Assembly: GCA_021734245.1 (NCBI GenBank)
Contig: JAIPJH010000006.1
Location: 5,194 to 69,193 of the forward strand
Source: Candidatus Cloacimonadota bacterium
GTDB taxonomy: Bacteria > Cloacimonadota > Cloacimonadia > Cloacimonadales > TCS61
Reading direction: 5' to 3'
Length of the DNA: 64,000 bases
Below are positions 2,116 through 47,011 of the stretch, one piece after another. The notes under the pieces were generated by a model that was not told the DNA's origin, made no database searches, and was given only the letters and a program-made list of their open reading frames with translations. Positions within the stretch are counted from its first letter, which is position 1. Each line of letters starts with the position of its first letter. The position numbers and the translations under genes are program-made.

Positions 2116-2201
2116 GCTCCCCTTCGTAAGGGGAGATTAAGAGGGGTTTTGTCAGATATTTAAATTTGATTATCAAAATCAAACCCCCTCCCAAAGGGGA
2201 A
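2116..2201. repeat. Composite hairpin repeat: A-type hairpin, GAGGGGTTTTGTCAGATA AT-rich linker, then an inverted AAACCCCCTC arm
   Basis: gctccccttcgtaaggggag forms a 7-bp stem. gaggggtttt at 2141-2150 is the inverse complement of aaaccccctc at 2181-2190. A second copy lies at 3491-3594. Confidence 0.8.
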
Positions 2202-2218
2202 CTTCGAGGATTAATTAT

Positions 2219-3421
2219 ATGAAAAATAGCTTAATATTTTTAGTATTAGCGTTGATCTCCAACTTGGTTGCACAAGAACCTGAATGGGTAAATGCCTTCA
2301 TAGCAGGAAGAGCAATAGAAAATGCTCAAGAATATTATTTTGGAATTGGAATTGGAAATAGTTTTAAAGAATCTGATGATGATGCAAGATGTGAGTTTGC
2401 CAAGAATGTCGAGATCAAAATAGCTGAATCTATCCTGAATAAAAGAACAGAAATCAACTCGCAAGCTTCTGAAGAATTCAGTATGACCAGCGAAATTACA
2501 ACTGATATGATATTGCGGGGAGTTTTTATAACAGAACGATATTACGATGAAAATGAAGATGAATATTTCAGTTTGATCTGCATAGTAAAAGAAGATTTTT
2601 TTGACCTTATTCAAAATGAGATCGAATTGGAAAAGCAGAGAAAAGCTGAAATCCTGGCTCAAACTCAAGAGATGAATCAACTGGATGAGCAGCTGAAATC
2701 GGAAGAATTAAAAAAGGATCAGACTGAATTAGATTATAAGAAGAAAAAACTTCAGCTCAAAAAAGAAAAAGAAGATATCGAATACGGTATTTACGAAGAT
2801 TTCTTGTGCATGCAGCCACCAAGACGCATCATCAGCATCGAAACTGCCTGCATTTCCAAAAAGCTTTTTTCAACCGACTTTAAGCTAAGAATTGCACCTT
2901 ACAAAGCTGATAAAATTGATTTCTCATTGAGATTGGGAATTGCGGAATTTATCGTACGAAATTATTGGCAAAATGAGGAGTTCAACACCTATAATTCAAG
3001 CATTAGACTGCAGCTTCTTCCCCATGCAGGAAGAATTGTTCGCTACAGTATTAGTGCTGGAATGGAAAGCGAAGATATTCCAAATGAAATTGGTAATAAA
3101 AATTTTAAGGAAATGAATTTTTCACCTCGAATCACGGGAACTATATGCTTACCTATGTATTACTCTTTTGTTTCCTGTTTCGTCAGCAATTCTGAAGCTG
3201 TAATTGCAGAGCAGTTATATTTTCCCTGGGATGTATTTGGAGAAATGCTAAGTTTTACTGCAGAATTGAAATATGTCTGGAATGAAGATAGTCGAAACAA
3301 ATTTGGTGATGAATTTCTTTTTCAACCGGGAATTCATTTCCAACCTACCAAAACGTTAGGTGCGACTTTTAGTTACGAGGAAAATCAGAAGTTCATTTTT
3401 ACTTTTGAATGGAGTATATAA
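2219..3421 (+). CDS. Secreted hypothetical protein: LPP20-like N-terminal domain, coiled coil, and a beta-rich C-terminal half
   Basis: Signal peptide MKNSLIFLVLALISNLVAQ, motif EPEWVNAF...YYFGIGIG, a K/E-rich coiled coil, and alternating hydrophobic strands to the C-terminus (FTFEWSI). Confidence 0.55.
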   Translation: MKNSLIFLVLALISNLVAQEPEWVNAFIAGRAIENAQEYYFGIGIGNSFKESDDDARCEFAKNVEIKIAESILNKRTEINSQASEEFSMTSEITTDMILRGVFITERYYDENEDEYFSLICIVKEDFFDLIQNEIELEKQRKAEILAQTQEMNQLDEQLKSEELKKDQTELDYKKKKLQLKKEKEDIEYGIYEDFLCMQPPRRIISIETACISKKLFSTDFKLRIAPYKADKIDFSLRLGIAEFIVRNYWQNEEFNTYNSSIRLQLLPHAGRIVRYSISAGMESEDIPNEIGNKNFKEMNFSPRITGTICLPMYYSFVSCFVSNSEAVIAEQLYFPWDVFGEMLSFTAELKYVWNEDSRNKFGDEFLFQPGIHFQPTKTLGATFSYEENQKFIFTFEWSI

Positions 3422-3490: not shown

Positions 3491-3594
3491 GCTCCCCTTC
3501 GTAAGGGGAGAAGAAGACGAAGTCGAAGTCGAAGAGGGGTTTTGTCAGATAAATAATTTTGATTATTAAACCTCTTCCCCTTCTAAAGGGAGAC
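3491..3594. repeat. Composite hairpin repeat, second copy of the 2116-2201 element
   Basis: gctccccttcgtaaggggagaagaagacgaagtcgaagtcgaagaggggttttgtcagataaataattttgattattaaacctcttcccc. It shares the A hairpin and the ggggttttgtcagata...ttgattat linker with 2116-2201. Confidence 0.8.
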
Positions 3595-8220: not shown

Positions 8221-8484
8221 GTGTGCACCTGCATTCGATACCTATTCCATAACAAGAGATAACAGCCAGCTCAAACCAAGTAGACCAACGGCACATTGCA
8301 AGATCTGCTTATTGCTGCTTCCTTCCAGACCTGACAAGGTTCACAGTTTACAATTGCGTCGGGCTTGATTCTCAACACCGCTTATTATTCTTGAAACGGA
8401 AATCAGTATTCTCCTGCAGGAATTCAGCCCCGCTATAGCGGATTGCGGGTTACAAGGCACCGCTGACTCCCCACCTAGCACACA
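8221..8484 (-). ncRNA. ffs: Signal recognition particle RNA, long (Alu-domain-containing, Bacillus-like) form
   Basis: The minus-strand sequence ccttgtcaggtctggaaggaagcagcaataagcagat matches the universally conserved SRP RNA domain IV (GUCAGGUCCGGAAGGAAGCAGC). The ends gtgtgc and gcacac can pair. Boundaries are approximate, within about 20 nt. Confidence 0.8.
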
Positions 8485-9021: not shown

Positions 9022-12000
9022 ATGAAATTTATTTTAACTTTTTTTGTTGTATTTTTTATATTTGCAGGATTATGTGCGCAAACTTATGTTCCAGATGCAA
9101 ATTTTAGAGAGGCAATAAATGATGAACTTGGGCAACCAGTTGGTTACGATCCAACAATTGCAGACTTGAACAGCTTAACAGGCCTATTAGATGTTGGTGA
9201 TGAAGGAATTTTATCTATTGAAGGTGCACAATATCTTACTGGGATTGACAGACTTTATATTGATGATAATCAGATATCCAATTTATCACCAGTTGCTGGG
9301 CTAACGAACTTGGAAAGACTTTTTGCTGATGGAAACCAGATCGTTGATATCTCTCCTGTAGCAAACCTAACCGCTCTCGTTCAACTAAAACTTGATGGAA
9401 ATCTTATAGTAGATATCTCCGCTGTTTCTGGTTTAACTGATCTTTATTATCTCGATCTTGGTGAAAATCAAATCGAAGATATATCACCTCTATCCACATT
9501 AACTACCACTTCCTGGATATATCTGGATAACAATCAGATCTCTTCTATTTCAGCTTTGGAAGGATTAGTAGAATTAGATAGACTGTATTTACATAATAAT
9601 AAGATTACTGAAATCTATCATTTAGTTCAGAATGCTGGTTTGGAATCGGGAGATTTGATCTATCTGGAAAGAAATGGAGTTAGTAATCCACTGTCTGTAG
9701 AAGCACTTGCTGTTCATGTTCCAGCATTGGAAGCAAGAGGTGTTGATGTTCATTATCCAGCTTCACCAAATTTAGAAGCAGCCTGCTATCCAGATCCAGA
9801 GAGAGAAGATAATACGGTTTCTCCTGCAAATGTATATTTTACATGGCAGGGATCTGATAATCCTGCCGATGTAACATATAAAATTTGGGCTGGTATATCA
9901 ATTGCTTCAATGAATTATTATGGTGACGGAGTTCATGGAAGCGGTACAGAATGGACATCTAATGGAGTAGTTTACTTATCTTCTAATATGGATATGTATT
10001 GGCAGATTGAAACTGTAACCACTACTGGAAGTTTATGGAGTGAGATCTGGCATTTCAGTACACCTGATGCAAATGCTGTTTTTGCTGATTTCAGCGCTGA
10101 TCAAACTACTGTAACAAATGCAACCCCTATTACATTTACTGATGAATCTTATGGATCAATAACAACTTGGTCCTGGGATTTTGATAATGATGGTACAATT
10201 GATTCCACTGATGAAAATCCAATATATACTTATACCACCAGCGGAACATATACAGTAAGTTTAACAGTGGGAAATGGAATTGATACAGATACCGAAACCA
10301 AGGTTGATTATATCACAGTTGATTTTGTCACTCCAGAATTTACTGATTTAGGTTTGCTCCAATCAAATGATCAATCAACTTGGACACCGGTTAACGGTTC
10401 AATGTATGATTATTCTATGCTTTTAGATCCTACAGAACAATATTATTTTTTAGATATGACAGCGGCTTCTGCCACAAATACACCTTTGCAGGTAGGTTTA
10501 CATCCTTTCTATTTTGATGGTGTTCCTGCTGGCTTCTTCGATTACTGGGCTGCAAAGAACGTTTTTGATGGGTGTGTTCCAGTAGATCCAAATCTTCCAT
10601 GGGAACCAATAATGTATCAGATTATATCCTCTAACTTACCTGTTTTCTATATCAGTTATGCTGCTGATGGTTCCTGGCAACTGGTCGATGGTCTGCTTTA
10701 TGAGTTAGACGGTACTCAGGATGATTTCAGAGTTAACGGAGATTATTTGATCGGCGATTATACAATTACTGGAAATGTAACTGGTGCTAACGGCATCCAA
10801 TCCGAGGATATTAGTGTTGATATAGAATTCTATACATTTGAACCAGATTTTGAAGCAGATCAAACATCAGTTATTCCTGGTACAACTGTACAATTTACCG
10901 ATCTTTCCAATGAAACTCCTACAGCCTGGAGTTGGGATTTGGATGGAGATGGAATAGAGGATTCTGATTTGCAAAATCCTACCTTTACGTACAATACTGT
11001 AGGAACATATGATGTCACTTTAACAGTAGAATGGGGAGCTTATGATGATACAGAAACCAAAACAGAATATATTGTTGTGGCAGATTTAGTTGTTCCCGAT
11101 GAAAACTTCCGAGAAGCATTAAATGATATTCTGGGAGAACCATCAGGATATTATCCTACAATTGCAGATTTAAATGGAATTACTGGAACTGTTGATGTAT
11201 CTGATGAAGAGATTATTTCAATAGAAGGTGCTCAATATTTAACTGGCATAGATAGATTATATATTGATGATAATCAAATTGTTGATCTTTCACCAATTGC
11301 TGGTTTAACAAATCTGGAAAGATTATTTGCTGATGGAAATGAAATCATTGATATTTCTGCGGTTGCAAATCTTACAGCTCTGGATCAATTGAAACTTGAT
11401 GGAAATGAAATCGTAGATATCTCTGCTGTTTCCGGTCTAACTAACCTTTACTACATTGATCTTGGTGAAAACCTGATAGTTGATATCTCTCCACTTTCTA
11501 CTTTTACCACAACTTCCTGGATTTATCTGGATAATAACTTTATCAATGAAATTTCTGCTCTCTCTGGTCTTTTAGAATTGGACAGGTTGTATATCTATGG
11601 AAATGAGATCACAGATATTTATCCATTAACTTTGAATACCGGATTTGGCGATGATGACGTTCTTTACTTAGAACGTTATGGTTATGGTAATCCTATATCT
11701 CATGAATCTATGAATGTATATATCCCAATTTTAGAAACTCTTGGATTCAGTACTCTTCAATATCCATCTGCTGCTAATCTGGAAGCTGCCTGTTACCCAG
11801 TTCCAAACAGAGATGCAACTGGTGTTTCTTTGAGTGCCGATCTCCAGTGGCAGGGAAATTTCCCGACAGATAATGCAACCTACAAAGTCTGGTTTGGAGA
11901 AGCAGCTGATAATCTGTCTTACGTTGGTGATGCAATTTCACTTGGTGGAAATATGTATTCATTCACTCCAACTTTAGCTTTGAACGGTGAATACTGGTGG

Positions 12001-18360: not shown

Positions 18361-19194
18361 TTATTTACCCTTACAAAGGGGAGCTTTTCGCAACGAAAAA
18401 TCAAAAGCTTTCACCGAATGGGTTAGTTCGCCTACCGAAATAAAATCGACACCAGTATCTGACACTTCCGGAATTCTTTCCAAAGTCATATTTCCGCTGG
18501 CTTCTGTTTCACATTTTCCAGAAATAATTTCAACTGCTTTTTTCATCATTTCACAGTTCATATTATCCAGCATAATGCGATCTACTTTGCATTCCAGTGC
18601 TTCTTTTACTTCCTGCAAATTTCTTGTTTCCACTTCTATCCCAAATCTATTTTGCCATTTATCTCTGATCTTTTGTACCGCTTTGGAGATTCCACCGGCA
18701 GCATCGATGTGATTGTCTTTGATCATCACCATATCGAAAAGTCCCATACGATGATTTTGGCCACCGCCACATCTCACTGCATATTTCTGTAGTTTGCGTA
18801 ATCCCGGAAGTGTTTTGCGAGTATCCAAAATTATTGATTTTCCCTTCGATGCTTCTACAAATTGGGAAGTTTTACTGGCAATTCCACTGAGATGAGCCAG
18901 AATATTTAGAGCAGTTCTTTCCGCTTTCAAAATTGAAGATACTTTCCCTGACAAAATAGCAATTTCATCGTTTTCTTCAATCTTATCTCCATCTTTGAAA
19001 TTCAACTTAATTTCGATTGAATTATCTACACTTTCAATCACAGATTTGAATTCCAAAATTCCACATAAAATTCCAGATTGCTTGGCGATTAAAACAAATT
19101 GATTTTGTTCGTTCTTAAAGATAGCTTCACCTGTTACATCTCCCAAATCTGCGAAATCTTCCTTAAGTGTTGATGTTAATAATTCTCTATTCAT
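18361..19194 (-). CDS. nadC: Nicotinate-nucleotide diphosphorylase (carboxylating)
   Basis: TRKTLPGLRKLQKYAVRCGGGQNHR...IMLDNM motifs, 277 aa. Confidence 0.9.
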   Translation of the reverse strand: MNRELLTSTLKEDFADLGDVTGEAIFKNEQNQFVLIAKQSGILCGILEFKSVIESVDNSIEIKLNFKDGDKIEENDEIAILSGKVSSILKAERTALNILAHLSGIASKTSQFVEASKGKSIILDTRKTLPGLRKLQKYAVRCGGGQNHRMGLFDMVMIKDNHIDAAGGISKAVQKIRDKWQNRFGIEVETRNLQEVKEALECKVDRIMLDNMNCEMMKKAVEIISGKCETEASGNMTLERIPEVSDTGVDFISVGELTHSVKAFDFSLRKAPLCKGK

Positions 19195-24260: not shown

Positions 24261-24621
24261 TTATAAATTTTGATTGCCTTTCCTTTTCTGAAACAGAAGT
24301 TTCGATAAAAAAAACTGCGTTCCCAAACTGGAGTTTAAGAACGATAAATAGCTGGAGTGTATTATCGACCTGCCAGGTCGATAAATAAAGAAAATTCTTA
24401 AATTTGACTATCACCGTGGCAGAGCCAAGGTGTATTTCGCTAAATTTATTTCAGCAAGCTGAAAATCGAATTTTCATTATTTACACCTCTGCCTTTGGCA
24501 TCTCCCCTCAAACAGGGGAGAATATTTGGAAAACCCCGATGCAGAGCAGCGAGGAATTCTTTCGATTCAAGTTTTTTAGCATCAGGAAAATTATTTATTC
24601 ATCCTGTGATACTGTCTGAAA

Positions 24622-36179: not shown

Positions 36180-37262
36180 ATGAAAAACTTTCGATTAGTT
36201 TTTGTTTTATTTTTTATTTTCAGTCTAAACCTGATCTGGAGTCAAAGCATCGCACGCTGGTATACTTCGATGGGAGATTTTGAAGTAACATTGCGCGAAG
36301 ATCTGATGCCGATTACAACAAATAACTTTCTGGACCTAACCAATTCAAACTTCTATGATAACCTGATTTTTCACCGTGTTATTGCAGATTTCATGATCCA
36401 GGACGGCTGACCACTGGGAACAGGCTACGGAGGTCCGGGCTATACAATTCCAGATGAATGGAATCCACTGGTAAATTATAATGAACCTTATGTAATCGGA
36501 ATGGCAAACACTGGCGCACCAAATTCTGCTGGATCACAATATTTCATAACAGTAGAGCCGACAACCTGGTTGAATGGCGATTATGCTGCTTTTGGTCACG
36601 TGACAATGGGAAGCGATATCGTGGAAGACATCAGTGAAGTTCCTACAGATGCAAACGATAAACCGTTAGTTGACGTTGAGATCGACAGTGTGCGAATTAT
36701 GACAGCACAATTTTACGGGTTCAGTCCCGAAGAAGATTCGCTTTATGTGAATGCCGGCGATCCGCTGGTTTTCGGAATGCTTACAAATGAACCGGATGTA
36801 ACTTTCAGTTGGTACGTGGACGATGAACTTCAAACCGAAACAGGTTTTCTTTTCAATGTTTCGCTTACTGTAAATGGTTGGCATGAAATCGTGGGAATCG
36901 GTACAAAAAATGGCTATGATTATGCAAAAACCTGGTGGGTTGAAATAACAGGAGGTTCTCATCTTGATGATATTCTAACGGCAAACAAAAATGTTCTTCT
37001 GCCAAATTCACCTAATCCATTCAATCCGGAAACGAATATTTCCTTCTATTTGAATGCTGCTGAAAAAGCCGTTTTGAAAATTTACAACGCAAGAGGAGAA
37101 TTGGTGAAAATTCTGGTTAATTCTCAGCTTACAGCCGGTTTCCATTCCTATATTTGGAATGGAACAGACTCTTCCAACCAAAATGTTGCCAGCGGAATTT
37201 ATTATTATCAACTTCGAGCAGGAAATCAAACACAAACCCGCAAAGCACTTTTATTGAAATAA
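36180..37262 (+). pseudogene. Secreted cyclophilin-type peptidyl-prolyl isomerase with a T9SS-type C-terminal domain, interrupted by an in-frame TGA at 36408-36410
   Basis: ORFs 36180-36410 and 36501-37262 share one frame. The continuous reading [30 protein letters not shown]...MANTGAPNSAGSQYFIT gives the cyclophilin core. C-terminus NSPNPFNPETNISF...GIYYYQLRA. Confidence 0.65.
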
Positions 37263-37321: not shown

Positions 37322-38572
37322 ATGAAAATAGCAATTATAGGTTTTGGCGCAGCCGCAATTGGTTACATCGAAAGAATTAAAAATTCGCCACATGAGATCC
37401 ATGTTTTTGAAAAAAGCAAAGACATCTACTCTTCCAGTATTTCCGGTATTCGAGCTGATGGGAAATTATTTGTTTCCCGCGAAATGGGTGGCAGCATCGA
37501 AGTGGATGAAGCTTTGCAGAATAAGCTAGTACAATTTTATCTGGATAAGACTGATAATAATCAATTTGAGCGGGGAAGTTCATTCTCTTCCAAAACGTTT
37601 TACAAACAATTTTACGAGAAGGGGTTTCAACCCATTCATTCCGAATTTTATCATTTGGGAACAGATCAACTCAAACAGGTTTTATACAAAATTTACGAAG
37701 ATTTCAAGCTTCATAAAAATATTTTTTTTCATTTCAGCGAAAATATAACCGATATCGAACCGATAGCTGGAAAAATCATTATTAATGCAAAAGATACTTT
37801 CGATAGAGTGATAGTTGCAGTCGGCAGAAGCGGTCATAAATTGGTTAAGAGGATCATTTCCAAATTTCCAAAACTGATCACCGATAATACCAGGGTCGAT
37901 CTTGGTGTGCGTTTCGAGCTTCCCGATCATATCGTGGAAGAGTTGAATAAAGAAATGTATGAATTCAAGGTGAAATACCGTAGCAAAACCGGTTATATGG
38001 TGCGCACTTTCTGCAACAATCCCAGCGGTTATGTTGTCACCGAAACTTATGAAGATTTCGTTACTGTGAACGGTCATTCCAAACTGCATGAAAAAAGCAA
38101 GAATACAAATTTCGCAATCCTGACGACCGTTCAACTAACAGAGCCTTTTAACGATCCCGTCGGATACGGATCGCATATTGCTCAATTGTCGAACATTCTG
38201 GCAGGCCAGAATAAAGTGATCTTGCAGACTTACGAAAATTTTGTGAATTCCAAGCGTACAAAACACCTTTATCGGGTTCTTCCCACTTTAGATAGTAATA
38301 GTTTTATTCTGGGAGATATCAACCTGGCTTTTCCGCGCCGTATTGCGGAAAGTATAATTGATTTTATCGATAATCTGGATAAAGTCGTTCCCGGAATTGC
38401 CAATGGTGACAATCTGCTTTACGCTCCAGAAATCAAATTTTATTCAAACTTGCTGGATAATAATCATTTTAATAATTTGAAATTCATTGGAGATTGTTCC
38501 GGTGGCACCAGATCGATAATTTACGCCACAGCTCATGGCTGGCAGATGGCAGAAACAACGCTGGATGATTGA
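37322..38572 (+). CDS. FAD-dependent oxidoreductase (uncharacterised dehydrogenase family)
   Basis: N-terminal dinucleotide fold MKIAIIGFGAAAIGY..HVFEK and the C-terminal motif GDCSGGTRSIIYA. Confidence 0.55.
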   Translation: MKIAIIGFGAAAIGYIERIKNSPHEIHVFEKSKDIYSSSISGIRADGKLFVSREMGGSIEVDEALQNKLVQFYLDKTDNNQFERGSSFSSKTFYKQFYEKGFQPIHSEFYHLGTDQLKQVLYKIYEDFKLHKNIFFHFSENITDIEPIAGKIIINAKDTFDRVIVAVGRSGHKLVKRIISKFPKLITDNTRVDLGVRFELPDHIVEELNKEMYEFKVKYRSKTGYMVRTFCNNPSGYVVTETYEDFVTVNGHSKLHEKSKNTNFAILTTVQLTEPFNDPVGYGSHIAQLSNILAGQNKVILQTYENFVNSKRTKHLYRVLPTLDSNSFILGDINLAFPRRIAESIIDFIDNLDKVVPGIANGDNLLYAPEIKFYSNLLDNNHFNNLKFIGDCSGGTRSIIYATAHGWQMAETTLDD

Positions 38573-39105
38573 AGATTTACGATTGAAAAAGCTCCCCTTT
38601 GTAAGGGGAGAAGAGAAACGAAGTTTCGAAGTGGGGTTTTAGATTGAAGATTGAAAATTTGAATTCCTTATTTCTCCCTTGTTAAGGGGAGATGCCGACA
38701 GGCAGAGGGGTTATTGATTTACGATTTTAGATTTAAGAATGATAAAGCTCCCCTTTGTAAGGGGAGAAGAGAAACGAAGTTTCGAAGTGGGGTTATAGAT
38801 TTAAGATTTACGATTGAAGATTTACGATTTTAGATTTAAGAATGAAAAGCTCCCCTTTGTAAGGGGAGAAGAGAAACGAAGTTTCGAAGTGGGGTTATAG
38901 ATTTAAGATTTACGATTTACGATTGAAGATTTACGATTTTAGATTTAAGAATGAAAAGCTCCCCTTTAAAGGGGAGAAGAGAAACGAAGTTTCGAAGTGG
39001 GGTTTTAGATTTAAGATTTATTTAATTATCAGATTCCTTATTTCTCCCTTGTTAAGGGGAGATGCCGACAGGCAGAGGGGTTATCTAAGATTGAAGATTT
39101 AATTA
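38567..39105 (+). repeat. Mosaic repeat array: hairpin modules A1-B1-A2-A3-A4-B2 joined by GATTNAN heptamer tracts
   Basis: The A modules (gctcccctttgtaaggggagaagagaaacgaagtttcgaagtggggtt) lie at 38591, 38747, 38849 and 38958. The B modules (ttccttatttctcccttgttaaggggagatgccgacaggcagaggggtt) lie at 38664 and 39034. The linkers are gatttaa/gatttac/gattgaa units. Confidence 0.9.
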
Positions 39106-39121
39106 ATCATCAGGAGGAGTC

Positions 39122-40462
39122 ATGAAAACATTCAAATGCGTAATAAAACGCAGCGGTGCGAAAGTTCCTTTCAAACTGGAAAGAATTGCTAATGCTATTT
39201 ATCGAGCTGCCGTAGCTGTAGGCGGTCGCGACAAAGAAAAGGCACAATTTCTGGCCGAACAGGTTTTGCAAAATCTCCGGAAAAATTTTCCAGCCGATCA
39301 TGATCCTCATATCGAAGAAATTCAGGATTGCGTAGAAAAAACTCTCATCAAAAATGGCAACGCACAAGTAGCAAAAGTTTATATTTTATATAGAAATGAG
39401 AAGAAGCAAAAACGCGATGACAAAGCTCTGAAAGCATCTATTCCCTCTCAAAATATTCCCTGGTCCAAGTTGTGGAAAATCCTGGATTGGACAGTCGATC
39501 ACGATCTGCATACAATTGAAGCAATTAATAAGCATATCAGGAATAAACGCTTTCCCCATGTCATCCACGAATGTGAAGAACTTTATCAGGAAGACATCGG
39601 CATAGCTGCCAAAATGATCGCAGAACGTGGTGATGATTTGAAAATGGTTTTCGTGAGCGGTCCATCATCTTCCGGTAAAACAACGACAACTATCAAACTG
39701 GAAGAAGATCTCAATAAAATTGGTTTGAAATTCAAAGCTTTTGTAGTGGATAATTATTTTTTCGATCTGGCTATGCATCCCAAAGATGAATTTGGCGATT
39801 ATGACTTTGAAACACCGCAGGCTCTGGATATTCCGCTCATCAACGAACATATCAGCAAATTGTGTAACGGCGAAGAAGTGCTGATTCCATTTTATGATTT
39901 CAAAACCGGAACACGTCATTTGGAACGTTCCAAAATGAAACTGAAAAAAGGTGAAATTCTGCTGATTGACAGTCTGCATGGATTATATCCGCCCATGAGT
40001 GAAAGTATTTCTGATAATCAGAAGTTCAAAGTTTATATCGAATCGCTTTTGCAGGTTAAAGATAATGATGGAAAATACATTCGCTGGAGCGACATTCGCA
40101 TGATGCGCCGCATGCTTCGTGATGCCAGCCATCGAGCCTACAAGCCTCAGCAGACTTTGGAACATTGGCATTATGTTCGCGCCAGTGAGATGCGTCACAT
40201 AATTCCCAATCAGACTAGAGCTGATTACATCATTTCCAGCGGAATGCCCTATGAATTGCCACTTTATAAAGCCAGTTTGTTTGCCGAATTTGAAAAATGG
40301 AAAGATGCTTATCGGAACAATCCTGAAAAGGAAGATGCTGATCTGCGAGCTCAAAGAACCTTTAATGTTCTGAAACAATTCGAAGCTGTTGAAGACGATT
40401 CTCCTGTTCCAAAAGATTCGGTTCTGCGTGAATTTATTGGCGGAAGCAAATACGAGTATTGA
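39122..40462 (+). CDS. ATP-cone domain protein fused to a P-loop nucleoside/uridine-kinase-like (PRK family) domain
   Basis: AGGAGG ribosome-binding site. N-terminus VIKRSGAKVPFKLERIANAIYRA (ATP-cone). Walker A VFVSGPSSSGKTTTT. The later segment LIDSLHGL...RRMLRDASHR is typical of the uridine kinase/PRK fold. Confidence 0.65.
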   Translation: MKTFKCVIKRSGAKVPFKLERIANAIYRAAVAVGGRDKEKAQFLAEQVLQNLRKNFPADHDPHIEEIQDCVEKTLIKNGNAQVAKVYILYRNEKKQKRDDKALKASIPSQNIPWSKLWKILDWTVDHDLHTIEAINKHIRNKRFPHVIHECEELYQEDIGIAAKMIAERGDDLKMVFVSGPSSSGKTTTTIKLEEDLNKIGLKFKAFVVDNYFFDLAMHPKDEFGDYDFETPQALDIPLINEHISKLCNGEEVLIPFYDFKTGTRHLERSKMKLKKGEILLIDSLHGLYPPMSESISDNQKFKVYIESLLQVKDNDGKYIRWSDIRMMRRMLRDASHRAYKPQQTLEHWHYVRASEMRHIIPNQTRADYIISSGMPYELPLYKASLFAEFEKWKDAYRNNPEKEDADLRAQRTFNVLKQFEAVEDDSPVPKDSVLREFIGGSKYEY

Positions 40463-40767
40463 AGATTGAAAAAGCTCCCCTTTTAAGGGGAGAAGAGAAA
40501 CGAAGTTTCGAAGTGGGGTTTTAGATTTAAGATTGAAAATTTGAGTTCCTTATTTCTCCCTTGTTAAGGGGAGATGCCGACAGGCAGAGGGGTTATCTAA
40601 GATTGAAGATTTACGATTGAAGATTTACGATTTTAGATTTAAGAATGAAAAGCTCCCCTTTGTAAGGGGAGAAGAGAAACGAAGTTTCGAAGAGGGGTTT
40701 TAGATTTAAGATTGAAAATTTGAGTTCCTTATTTCTCCCTTGTTAAGGGGAGACAGAGTGACGAATC
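40455..40767 (+). repeat. Mosaic repeat array continued: A5-B3-A6-B4
   Basis: A modules at 40474 and 40652. B modules at 40546 and 40725; the last B has a divergent 3-prime half. The TGA stop of the kinase gene (40460-40462) lies inside a heptamer unit, tattgaa gattgaa. Confidence 0.9.
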
Positions 40768-40784
40768 GTTAGTTTTGTTCGTTG

Positions 40785-46878: not shown

Positions 46879-46948
46879 GTCAACTTCCGAATGTTACAGA
46901 AATCCTGTATCTTCGGAATGTTTGATATAAATTTATGAAAACTAAAAT

Positions 46949-47011
46949 AACCCCTCTGTTCTGTTTAGAAGAGCAGAACATCTCCCCTTAACAAGGGAGA
47001 AACTTAAGGAA
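46949..47011 (-). repeat. Module B repeat in reverse orientation with a substituted second hairpin
   Basis: aacccctctgttctgtttagaagagcagaacatctccccttaacaagggagaaacttaaggaa. The ends match the reverse complement of module B, and the internal hairpin gttctg..cagaac replaces gcc..ggc. Confidence 0.8.

Follow-up and report, generated by a model that had tools for sequence, protein, structure and literature searches.

The GC-rich modules repeated through a 549-bp intergenic spacer of the 64-kb window (the whole stretch of DNA analyzed here) are, to judge from their sequence, probably class II purine-motif intrastrand triplex repeats of the already known BoxC/PIT/TM_ECO kind. A sequence-only reading had described them as double-hairpin modules. 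Instead, they appear to belong with the intrastrand triplex repeats described previously (PMC4666352), and what defines them is that the purine arm AAGGGGAG and the sequence G(A/T)GGGGTT mirror each other. The extra hairpin within the second loop of the modules is an undescribed form of this kind. Repeats of the BoxC/PIT/TM_ECO kind occur in E. coli and other bacteria, and their triplex has been demonstrated on single-stranded DNA by CD and NMR (PMC4666352).

The spacer extends 549 bp, as originally given, from a stop codon at 38570-38572 to an ATG at 39122, and the description of 38567-39105 as four copies of A and two of B linked by GATTNAN heptamers was correct. Copies of module A start at 38592, 38748, 38850, and 38959; the first three are the same 47-mer, as had been noted, and the fourth is 46 nt long, with a loop of TA replacing the TGT of A1-A3. 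The A2-A3 distance is 102 bp and the A3-A4 distance 109 bp, with exactly one extra GATTTAC in the longer linker, again as reported. The cores of module B (38674-38712 and 39044-39082) are identical to each other, but their first hairpin, previously described as a perfect tctccctt/aaggggaga, proved to be CTCCCTT/AGGGGAG with one T.G wobble. Tandem Repeats Finder detected the period-7 arrays together with a 102-bp super-repeat, and in shuffled sequence 0 matches to the module patterns were expected by chance. The G+C richness claimed for the modules was borne out (47-59%; window, 37%; linkers, 22%). The features of the spacer are as follows.

38567-38587, plus strand: heptamer run GATTGAA GATTTAC GATTGAA, the first unit of which holds the TGA stop (38570-38572) of the FAD-dependent protein gene
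38592-38638, plus strand: module A1, with arms CTCCCCTT (pyrimidine) and AAGGGGAG (purine) around loop tgt, and third arm GTGGGGTT
within 38592-38638, plus strand: loop 2 of module A1, containing the hairpin GAAAC-gaa-GTTTC
38664-38712, plus strand: module B1, including the conserved leader TTCCTTATTT; arms CTCCCTT and AGGGGAG (one T.G wobble) around loop GTTA
within 38664-38712, plus strand: loop 2 of module B1, with hairpin GCC-gaca-GGC, and third arm GAGGGGTT
38748-38794, plus strand: module A2, same sequence as A1
38798-38839, plus strand: heptamer microsatellite of the A2-A3 linker, six GATTNNN units
38850-38896, plus strand: module A3, same sequence as A1
38900-38948, plus strand: heptamer microsatellite of the A3-A4 linker, seven units (the A2-A3 linker plus one GATTTAC)
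38959-39004, plus strand: module A4, loop 1 shorter by one base
39034-39082, plus strand: module B2 with leader; over 39034-39101 the sequence matches 40546-40613 at 100% identity

The modules had been suspected to form a dispersed family, and they are indeed not limited to this spacer. Six more complete modules, for a total of 12, and truncated copies were found elsewhere in the window, with copies at 2117, 3492, 18365, 40463-40760, and 46949. The A-B-heptamer-A-B order recurs at 40463-40760, just 3′ of the next gene, and all copies at 38.5-40.8 kb are in direct orientation, with no inverted doublets there. In the two composite elements, which flank an LPP20-like gene (2219-3421), the arrangement seen at 2117-2205 is a module, then TTTGTCAGATA..TTGATTAT, then a second C-rich hairpin. 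The additional copies are listed here.

2117-2205, plus strand: composite element of ~90 bp, with a class II module at 2117-2148 that has a 5-nt loop 2
3492-3592, plus strand: second copy of the composite element, with the module at 3492-3541; its loop 2 has 18 extra nt in CGAAGT-like repeats
18365-18390, minus strand: truncated module-A fragment (gaaaagCTCCCCTTTGTAAGGG) at the nadC/nadA junction
40475-40520, plus strand: module A5, starting 13 bp past the stop of the ATP-cone/PRK gene, whose TGA again lies in a GATTGAA-like unit
40546-40594, plus strand: module B3 with leader
40601-40642, plus strand: heptamer microsatellite, six units
40653-40699, plus strand: module A6, with third arm GAGGGGTT vs. 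GTGGGGTT in A1-A5
40725-40752, plus strand: truncated module B4, with leader and first hairpin and without the third arm
46949-46999, minus strand: B-type module in the ProRS-CinA spacer, whose hairpin in loop 2 differs (TTCTG..CAGAA)

Each of the window's 12 complete modules carries its arms on one strand in the order 5′-pyrimidine arm, loop, purine arm, loop, third arm-3′. The tail first described as "ggggtt", in full G(A/T)GGGGTT, mirrors the purine arm AAGGGGAG, and in each of the 12 the triplet code (G*G-C, A*A-T, T*A-T) is obeyed at eight of eight positions. The A/T swap in the third arm of A6 lies opposite an A-T pair, where either base is permitted by the code. A search with the purine code gave 17 matches in the window vs. 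0-2 for control registers and codes. The PIT/ITxF definition calls for a hairpin of 7-8 bp or more with no more than one mismatch. The Watson-Crick hairpin has eight perfect pairs in A-type modules and in the single copies at 2117 and 3492, and seven pairs, one of them T.G, in B-type modules; the third arm stays unpaired in DNA folds, as computed by folding tools that model only Watson-Crick and wobble pairs. At the position flanking the arms, the A modules of the window read (G,A,A), so that G stands opposite A, a mismatch rather than a triplet.

Loop 2 measures 20 nt in module A, 13 nt in module B, 23 nt at 3492, and 25 nt at 46949. The published ITxF search admitted loops of 1-6 nt, and that of Hoyne et al. 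loops of 0-10 nt; the copy at 2117, with 5 nt, is the only one in the window inside those limits. The limits are search settings and not a physical requirement. Loop 2 is long here (11-25 nt, beyond the published 6 or 10 nt) because the second hairpin sits inside it.

Further evidence came from copies in other taxa. Three positions flanking the arms co-vary according to the triplet code as C-G*G, G-C*T, and T-A*A: among 163 unique copies from genome loci, gathered with a fixed pattern and not phylogenetically independent, (C,G,G) was found 88 times, (G,C,T) 42 times, and (T,A,A) 10 times, and phage loci collected likewise showed the same pattern (87, 22, and 3, respectively; n = 128). Overall, 218 of 238 unique cores conformed to the code, regardless of whether the loop was short or long. 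With X=A and Y=A forced, T was the free 5′ base in 102 of 121 copies. The G-C*T state is found nearly exclusively in long-loop copies and may represent a single old subfamily. T*C-G is a favored purine-motif triplet in the chemistry literature; our own literature check on T.CG turned it up for the pyrimidine motif only. Outside the searched pattern, 568 asymmetric pyrimidine/purine hairpins were found, and a perfect mirror-code arm lay downstream of 130 of them, compared with 31 for the direct register, 11 for the mirror register upstream, and 20 for the direct register upstream. Altogether, at least 25 different purine arms were accompanied by a matching mirror arm. The hairpin in loop 2 is conserved in structure and not in sequence: its perfect stem averages 5.3 bp vs. 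2.9 bp in shuffles, 77 distinct arms were seen, and C-GNA-G triloops close it in 59 of 122 copies. This form recurs across many bacterial phyla and phages; a metagenome scan for the exact module-A core gave 0 matches. Rfam, in which a check had been proposed, has no family that matches the modules. Nothing reached the gathering score on the window, ten other module-bearing loci gave no match, and only chance-level matches (E above 2) appeared when an E-value threshold was applied to the region.

From the sequence and covariation, the modules probably fold as follows. When one DNA strand becomes unpaired, e.g., during replication, repair, or transcription, CTCCCCTT and AAGGGGAG would pair to form a hairpin. 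The strand would then be turned back by loop 2, itself a small hairpin stacked on the first, and G(A/T)GGGGTT would occupy the major groove, running antiparallel to the purine arm and producing G*G-C, A*A-T, and T*A-T triplets. Such modules may be selfish or neutral intergenic DNA, which implies no dedicated cellular function, and could be gained, lost, and amplified through recombination or replication slippage at structures that are hard to replicate. PIT elements have been linked with local genomic instability, and in E. coli the triplex was not detected by in vivo DMS footprinting (PMC4666352).

Within the window, the heptamers occur at this locus only, and they are also present at the orthologous position in a relative (L125) that lacks modules, which rules them out as part of a mobile unit. 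They are a local microsatellite separate from the module. The structure of the array suggests that modules entered a pre-existing GATTNAN microsatellite beside the ATP-cone/PRK gene, and that a unit of ~100 bp, comprising heptamers and a module, was amplified and then copied to the other side of the gene.

Module copies have been gained and lost, as filled and empty orthologous sites show. Modules are absent at four of five orthologous 21-kb loci of relatives, and the modules found elsewhere in the window are missing from the corresponding sites of close relatives. Spacers range from 40 to 549 bp in length. Two relatives have an empty ProRS-CinA spacer, and in two others it was filled independently, in the opposite orientation. 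Genuine phage genomes also carry the family, which suggests one route between hosts. As a separate observation, module orientation in phage loci was biased with respect to local GC skew; no such signal was seen in genome loci.

These patterns of gain also fit non-autonomous mobile DNA of the REP/REPIN/MITE type, in which a transposase or nuclease encoded elsewhere recognizes the hairpins and the GAGGGGTT box, the triplex-compatible pattern being either secondary or itself the recognition structure. Dispersed copies, filled and empty sites, and one spacer gained independently are what such an element would leave. Other taxa show tail-to-tail inverted pairs and mosaic arrays (e.g., loci L009, L018, and L025), phages bearing the family could carry modules between hosts, and C-GNA-G triloops would suit a single-stranded DNA intermediate. 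We nevertheless consider this explanation unlikely. No transposase, RAYT, IS200-type element, or integrase was found among the ~50 ORFs scanned in the window. Across 240 loci, an all-against-all BLAST of 2854 ORFs yielded no recurrent neighbor besides phage structural and housekeeping clusters, and no RAYT/Y1 (IS200-like) transposase recurred near the copies. Neither terminal inverted repeats nor target duplications were seen at filled sites, and the copies in the window array are all direct. Moreover, recognition by a protein leaves unexplained a repeat that is mirrored rather than inverted and that follows the triplet code over more than 25 arms. A bolder proposal, that the triplex module with its loop-2 hairpin is a single horizontally spreading element of many phyla and phages, its three-way covariation reflecting in vivo selection on the folding of single-stranded DNA into a triplex, is doubtful. 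If true, it would imply a partner or role, such as a structure-specific nuclease, a transposase, or a lagging-strand template signal, and would be the first comparative-genomic evidence that purine-motif triplexes, T*C-G included, matter in living cells.

Action at the RNA level, with hairpins at mRNA 3′ ends blocking exonucleases or terminating transcription, is considerably less probable. It would account for the 11 of 12 window modules that lie 3′ of a gene and co-oriented with it, for the excess of convergent over divergent spacers across taxa (32 vs. 10, or about three times commoner), and for the plus-strand RNA fold of the spacer (z-score -6.4). Six terminator-like flags also fell on the minus strand of module A, where CTTTT follows a hairpin. 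However, only this antisense strand scores; no plus-strand intrinsic (Rho-independent) terminator was found in the arrays, the modules carry no U-tract on the plus strand (the orientation relevant to the flanking genes), and the family is not flanked by A- or T-runs. Between co-directional genes, modules were nearly random in orientation (34 vs. 25 in a first tally of genome loci, 27 vs. 23 in a re-run, and 27 vs. 23 in phage loci), and orientation relative to flanking genes looks random in ~300 copies, as judged from crude ORF calls. A conserved third arm with no Watson-Crick partner and the lack of an Rfam match also argue against an RNA element. RNA reportedly does not form purine-motif triplexes, and E. 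coli PIT elements have neither promoter nor terminator activity (PMC4666352). The mRNA 3′ stabilization raised by the sequence-only reading is thus unsupported. Two candidate RNA structures were dropped as well. A three-way junction in module B, with an outer stem AAUUCCUU/GAGGGGUU containing three G.U pairs in the RNA fold, was abandoned as the leader is part of the repeat unit and the pairing is missing in other family members. A terminator/antiterminator-type switch (GAGGGG-CCCCTT) spans only 5-6 bp, is lost in the common CCCCTG variants, and leaves the covariation unexplained.

A G-quadruplex cluster combining the GGGG runs of neighboring modules is very improbable: two adjacent modules would supply the four runs required, and G-rich triplex sequences can compete with quadruplex folds, but single modules, the commonest state across taxa, have just two runs, one of them locked in a stable hairpin, the conserved A/T positions and three-way covariation have no quadruplex role, and NMR of the E. 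coli motif excluded a quadruplex (PMC4666352).

The intrastrand triplex reading of the modules bears on whether living bacteria form DNA triplexes and whether these are of consequence to them. The family offers a natural test, having an asymmetric purine arm, a third arm that follows the mirror code, and a flanking position that changes at three sites together. The class of triplex repeats is probably larger than catalogued, having been undercounted because published searches limited loop length and missed copies with a loop-2 hairpin. In practical terms, short-read assemblies break at arrays of such modules, and the direct repeats that the arrays place on either side of genes could drive the loss or duplication of those genes.

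Among known systems, H-DNA shares with the modules its purine-motif triplet chemistry, mirror symmetry, and association with polymerase stalling and instability. It arises from duplex DNA, however, with half of one strand donated, whereas a module has its three arms together on one strand, which must be single for the fold to form. Each REP is a palindrome specific to its species and linked to a RAYT gene, and REP copies generally alternate in orientation. The likeness to BIME/REP mosaics proposed at the outset holds insofar as the modules form a dispersed family of intergenic repeats: like the REP, BIME, and REPIN sequences of Enterobacteria and Pseudomonas, they are short, G+C-rich, and palindromic, and they form mosaic clusters with variable linkers, often past stop codons. 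The third, mirror arm instead places them among the triplex repeats; in addition, their copies at this locus are all direct, their arms recur across phyla, and no RAYT was found in the 64-kb window.

The closest relatives are the BoxC/PIT/TM_ECO elements (Hoyne, Maher et al. 2000; Holder et al. 2015, PMC4666352). PIT elements lie between genes, favor neither strand, and are found as inverted pairs (PMC4666352). The modules share with this group the class II order on one strand with the reverse-Hoogsteen arm last, G/C-rich arms of 8-9 nt, intergenic location in many copies per genome without strand bias, occasional inverted pairs, and variation between close relatives. A literature search on the arm sequences themselves found nothing relevant, and the E. 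coli BoxC/TM_ECO consensus, CCCTCNCCC N3-6 GGGNGAGGG N3 GGGNGAGGG, had 0 matches in the window. The arms here are CTCCCCTT/AAGGGGAG/GWGGGGTT, vs. CCCTCNCCC/GGGNGAGGG/GGGNGAGGG in E. coli. Unlike that of TM_ECO, the purine arm is asymmetric, which makes the mirror register distinguishable from the direct one. Loop 2 is a hairpin of 11-25 nt here and 3 nt in TM_ECO, and the modules, unlike TM_ECO, form head-to-tail arrays inside a 7-bp microsatellite. Finally, the host is a Cloacimonadota MAG and not one of the Proteobacteria, and the arm set found here also occurs in phage genomes, whereas TM_ECO was reported without phage association (PMC4666352).

Reading of positions 38300-39400 recovered the four A and two B modules described in the sequence-only reading, three of the A modules (starting at 38592, 38748 and 38850) being identical and the copy at 38959 having a loop one base shorter. 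The reported spacings, 102 bp for A2-A3 and 109 bp for A3-A4, were likewise found to be one heptamer apart, with one additional GATTTAC in the longer linker; the linkers between modules consist of runs of GATTNAN units. The contrast between GC-rich modules and an AT-rich setting was also borne out, with a G+C content of 47-59% in the modules, 22% in the linkers and 37% in the window. The modules are not confined to this spacer, a case that the earlier reading had left open, and the copies and fragments found are as follows.

Repeat modules and an RNA gene in the window (window positions)
Starts 38592, 38748, 38850 and 38959, plus strand: module A, CTCCCCTT-tgt-AAGGGGAG aaga GAAAC-gaa-GTTTC gaa GTGGGGTT; GAAAC/GTTTC hairpin between boxes 2 and 3
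38674-38712 and 39044-39082, plus strand: module B, CTCCCTT-gtta-AGGGGAG at GCC-gaca-GGC a GAGGGGTT; GCC/GGC hairpin between boxes 2 and 3
40463-40760, plus strand: near-identical A-B-heptamers-A-B block, 3' of the ATP-cone/PRK (uridine-kinase-like) gene (PRK gene)
2117, plus strand: single module; 5 nt between boxes 2 and 3
3492, plus strand: single module; CGAAGT-like repeats between boxes 2 and 3
46949, minus strand: single module; TTCTG/CAGAA hairpin between boxes 2 and 3
18365: truncated module piece
8221-8483, minus strand: bacterial large SRP RNA (Rfam RF01854, 189 bits)

Three boxes are common to every copy, CTCCC(C/T)T, AAGGGGAG and G(A/T)GGGGTT, and the interval between the second and third is variable. 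Module patterns arose by chance in 0 of 100 shuffles. A plain hairpin without a third arm, TCTCCCCT-caaac-AGGGGAGA, occurs at 24498-24524, where the ammonium transporter gene and ftsY converge; it is possibly a bidirectional terminator or what remains of a module.

The third box was found to be the mirror image of the second (with T permitted opposite a purine-arm A) rather than a direct or inverted copy. With G(A/T)GGGGTT aligned to AAGGGGAG in the antiparallel sense, the positions read in order T*A-T, T*A-T, G*G-C four times, (A or T)*A-T and G*G-C, and every one of these eight triplets is canonical for the purine (reverse-Hoogsteen) triplex motif. Scanning the window generically for this class II architecture (pyrimidine arm, loop, purine arm, loop 2 and third arm on one strand) gave 17 matches for arms of 7 nt and 8 for arms of 8 nt, compared to 2 and 0 for a direct-register control and 0 and 0 for a swapped code. 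In folds computed with DNA parameters, both hairpins form and the third arm stays unpaired. A pattern-free test was made on 568 asymmetric 8-bp hairpins of other sequence, each pairing an all-pyrimidine with an all-purine arm, in 2.7 Mb of fetched loci. A perfect mirror-code arm occurred within 40 nt downstream in 130 of them, whereas the controls gave 31 and 20 for the direct register downstream and upstream, respectively, and 11 for the mirror code upstream. Hairpins with such an arm included at least 25 different purine arms; one other arm set, TTCTCCT/AGGAGAA/ATGAGGT, is present in two copies at the orthologous locus of one relative (L128). A mirror rule that is valid across many arm sequences is as predicted by selection on a triplex fold, and a sequence-reading protein would not be expected to produce it.

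The search pattern left free three positions beside the fixed boxes, which lie immediately 5' of the pyrimidine arm, 3' of the purine arm and 5' of the third arm. Among the matches listed, the 163 unique genome copies were (C,G,G) in 88 cases, (G,C,T) in 42 and (T,A,A) in 10, with the window's own (G,A,A) type in 7, and the phage copies (n=128) showed the same pattern (87, 22 and 3, respectively). Code-conforming unique cores made up 218 of 238 among the matches listed, for short and long loop 2 alike, although the copies are mutually related and chi-square values overstate their independence. In the metagenome set, where the second and third positions were forced to A,A, 102 of the 121 copies among the matches listed had T at the free first position. 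Of the triplets involved, C-G*G and T-A*A are canonical. In the purine motif, T is probably the favoured natural answer to an inverted C-G pair; in the literature checked, T.CG was found only for the pyrimidine motif. The G-C*T state is nearly restricted to one long-loop subfamily. We consider this natural covariation the most interesting by-product of the analysis, because it bears on the in vivo selection of triplex DNA.

Loop 2 is at least 12 nt long in 122 of the 163 unique genome copies among the matches listed. The hairpins within it comprise 77 different arm sequences, with a mean perfect stem of 5.3 bp versus 2.9 bp in shuffles, and a C-GNA-G triloop closes 59 of the 122. GNA triloops of the d(GCGAAGC) type are classic extra-stable DNA mini-hairpins. 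The insert is a real hairpin, conserved in structure. It starts 1-2 bases past the purine arm and ends immediately 5' of the third arm, a placement by which it could stack on the first helix and return the strand into its major groove.

The three-box pattern was found at no fewer than 120 loci in 185,579 species genomes, where ~8 chance matches are expected by estimate, and at no fewer than 120 loci each in viral and metagenome contigs; the counts from all three scans are lower bounds and the taxon lists are samples. Genome matches listed come from widely differing phyla and include many Oscillospiraceae, other Clostridia, Geobacter, Gallionella, cyanobacteria, Deinococcus, Saccharibacteria, Nitrospirota, Bacteroidota and one Cloacimonadales chromosome. 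The viral matches are genuine phages, which encode terminase, a Mu-type portal, Mu F and virion morphogenesis proteins. In an uncultured Clostridia MAG (L009, 4122-5737), 15 modules occupy 1.6 kb as a BIME-like mosaic of two subtypes alternating by strand, G-C*T on plus and C-G*G on minus. Relative to co-directional flanking genes, modules lay in the same versus the opposite orientation at 34 versus 25 genome loci and 27 versus 23 phage loci, and in convergent versus divergent spacers in 32 versus 10 cases, all by crude ORF calls, which probably mislabel many modules in high-G+C loci as "inside ORF". The modules show no transcription polarity. Nor did GC skew correlate with module orientation in the genome loci. 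In the phage loci (L130-L249), the module's G-rich strand was on the strand with C-rich flanks in 75 of 103 (p ~4e-6), despite the lack of any ORF-based orientation bias there.

Orthologous 21-kb loci were compared from five relatives whose ATP-cone/PRK proteins are 91% to 76% identical to that of the window. As a check suggested by the earlier reading, this revealed a patchy distribution: four of the five loci hold no class II module, and L128 has six of other sequences. The spacer before the PRK gene measures 549 bp in the window, against 142, 40, 108 and 311 bp in four relatives. Between the ProRS and CinA genes, L125 and L127 have 11 and 9 nt, the window has 151 bp with a minus-strand module and L128 has 115 bp with a different plus-strand module, two independent gains at one site. 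The modules at 2117 and 3492 are held in a composite element of ~95 bp, two direct copies of which flank an LPP20-like lipoprotein gene (2219-3421). This gene is missing from the corresponding place in L126, where a 72-bp spacer without the element separates the MnmA and UDP-GlcNAc 2-epimerase genes. A second short repeat of Cloacimonadota intergenic spacers, CTTCCGAAYRKTT / CCTTCGGAACGGTT (window 46884-46935; L128 9720-9860 and 11470-11500), adjoins triplex modules yet is distinct from them, and in L125 another small hairpin repeat, GTCCGCC-ttg(g)-GCGGA(T), occupies at 9868-9885 and 11345-11362 the two spacers that hold triplex modules in the window. Elsewhere in the window, the cyclophilin/FlgD_ig/T9SS-tail gene at 36180-37262 is broken by an in-frame TGA (36410-36412), which is TGT (Cys) in the single-gene ortholog of L125; L126 and L127 have the same 76 aa + 264 aa split. 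Selenocysteine, readthrough or a pseudogene are candidate explanations.

Heptamers occur in the window only beside the PRK gene. In the closest relative (L125), GATTGAA GATTTAC GATTTAC GATTGAA follows the same stop codon with no module, and L128 has related GATTGAA units at that place, so the microsatellite is evidently older and local, with the modules sitting within it. The PRK gene (39122-40462) is flanked by near-identical direct-repeat arrays (38573-39121 and 40463-40784), which could mediate its deletion or duplication. A 68-bp block is 100% identical between them (39034-39101 and 40546-40613), indicating that they are recent copies of each other, and short-read Logan contigs of the gene end within both. 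We suggest that the strand must be single-stranded to adopt the fold of a hairpin with a third strand, and that such folds would impede polymerases and favour slippage and recombination. This would account for the one-heptamer difference, the 102-bp super-repeat, the loop-2 expansions and the array's duplication to the other side of the PRK gene, and a dedicated cellular benefit need not be assumed.

The module gains, inverted pairs and phage carriage are consistent with a REP- or MITE-type element moved by a transposase. However, no candidate enzyme, RAYT/IS200-type or other, was present in the window or near copies elsewhere, and recognition by a protein leaves the mirror repeat unexplained. 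The case for a role at RNA 3' ends, proposed earlier as mRNA stabilisation, is weak, as only the antisense strand of module A is terminator-like, the family's flanks are not U- or A-runs and orientation to genes is nearly even. A G-quadruplex reading fails for single modules.

The feature is clearly real and more than chance. Its kind is not new, since, judging by sequence, the modules are a hitherto unreported form of the intrastrand-triplex repeats (BoxC/PIT/TM) already described. Holder et al. (2015, NAR, PMC4666352) review BoxC of E. coli (1990s) and the "potential intrastrand triplex" (PIT) elements of Hoyne and Maher (2000), and define four triplex classes, class II being 5'-pyrimidine, purine, reverse-Hoogsteen-3'. 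The E. coli motif CCCTCNCCC N3-6 GGGNGAGGG N3 GGGNGAGGG formed a very stable single-stranded-DNA triplex by CD and NMR, although DMS footprinting did not detect a triplex in vivo; according to the authors, RNA does not form purine-motif triplexes. Copies are intergenic, without strand bias, at times in inverted pairs, and tied to local genomic variability among strains; neither promoter nor terminator activity had been seen in earlier work (PMC4666352). Clostridia, covariation and longer loops go unmentioned in that paper, which reports TM_ECO without a phage link. Loops of 1-6 nt were permitted in its search and of 0-10 nt in Hoyne's, limits that only the 2117 copy passes among the window's modules. 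The E. coli consensus had no match in the window, our literature search found no paper on the present arm set, and Rfam, another suggested check, returned no family match to the modules in the window, in the array region or at ten other module loci. Compared to BoxC/PIT/TM, the modules described here differ in carrying a hairpin in loop 2, in their different and asymmetric arm set, in their head-to-tail arrays within a microsatellite, and in a cross-phylum and phage distribution beyond the reach of the published searches.
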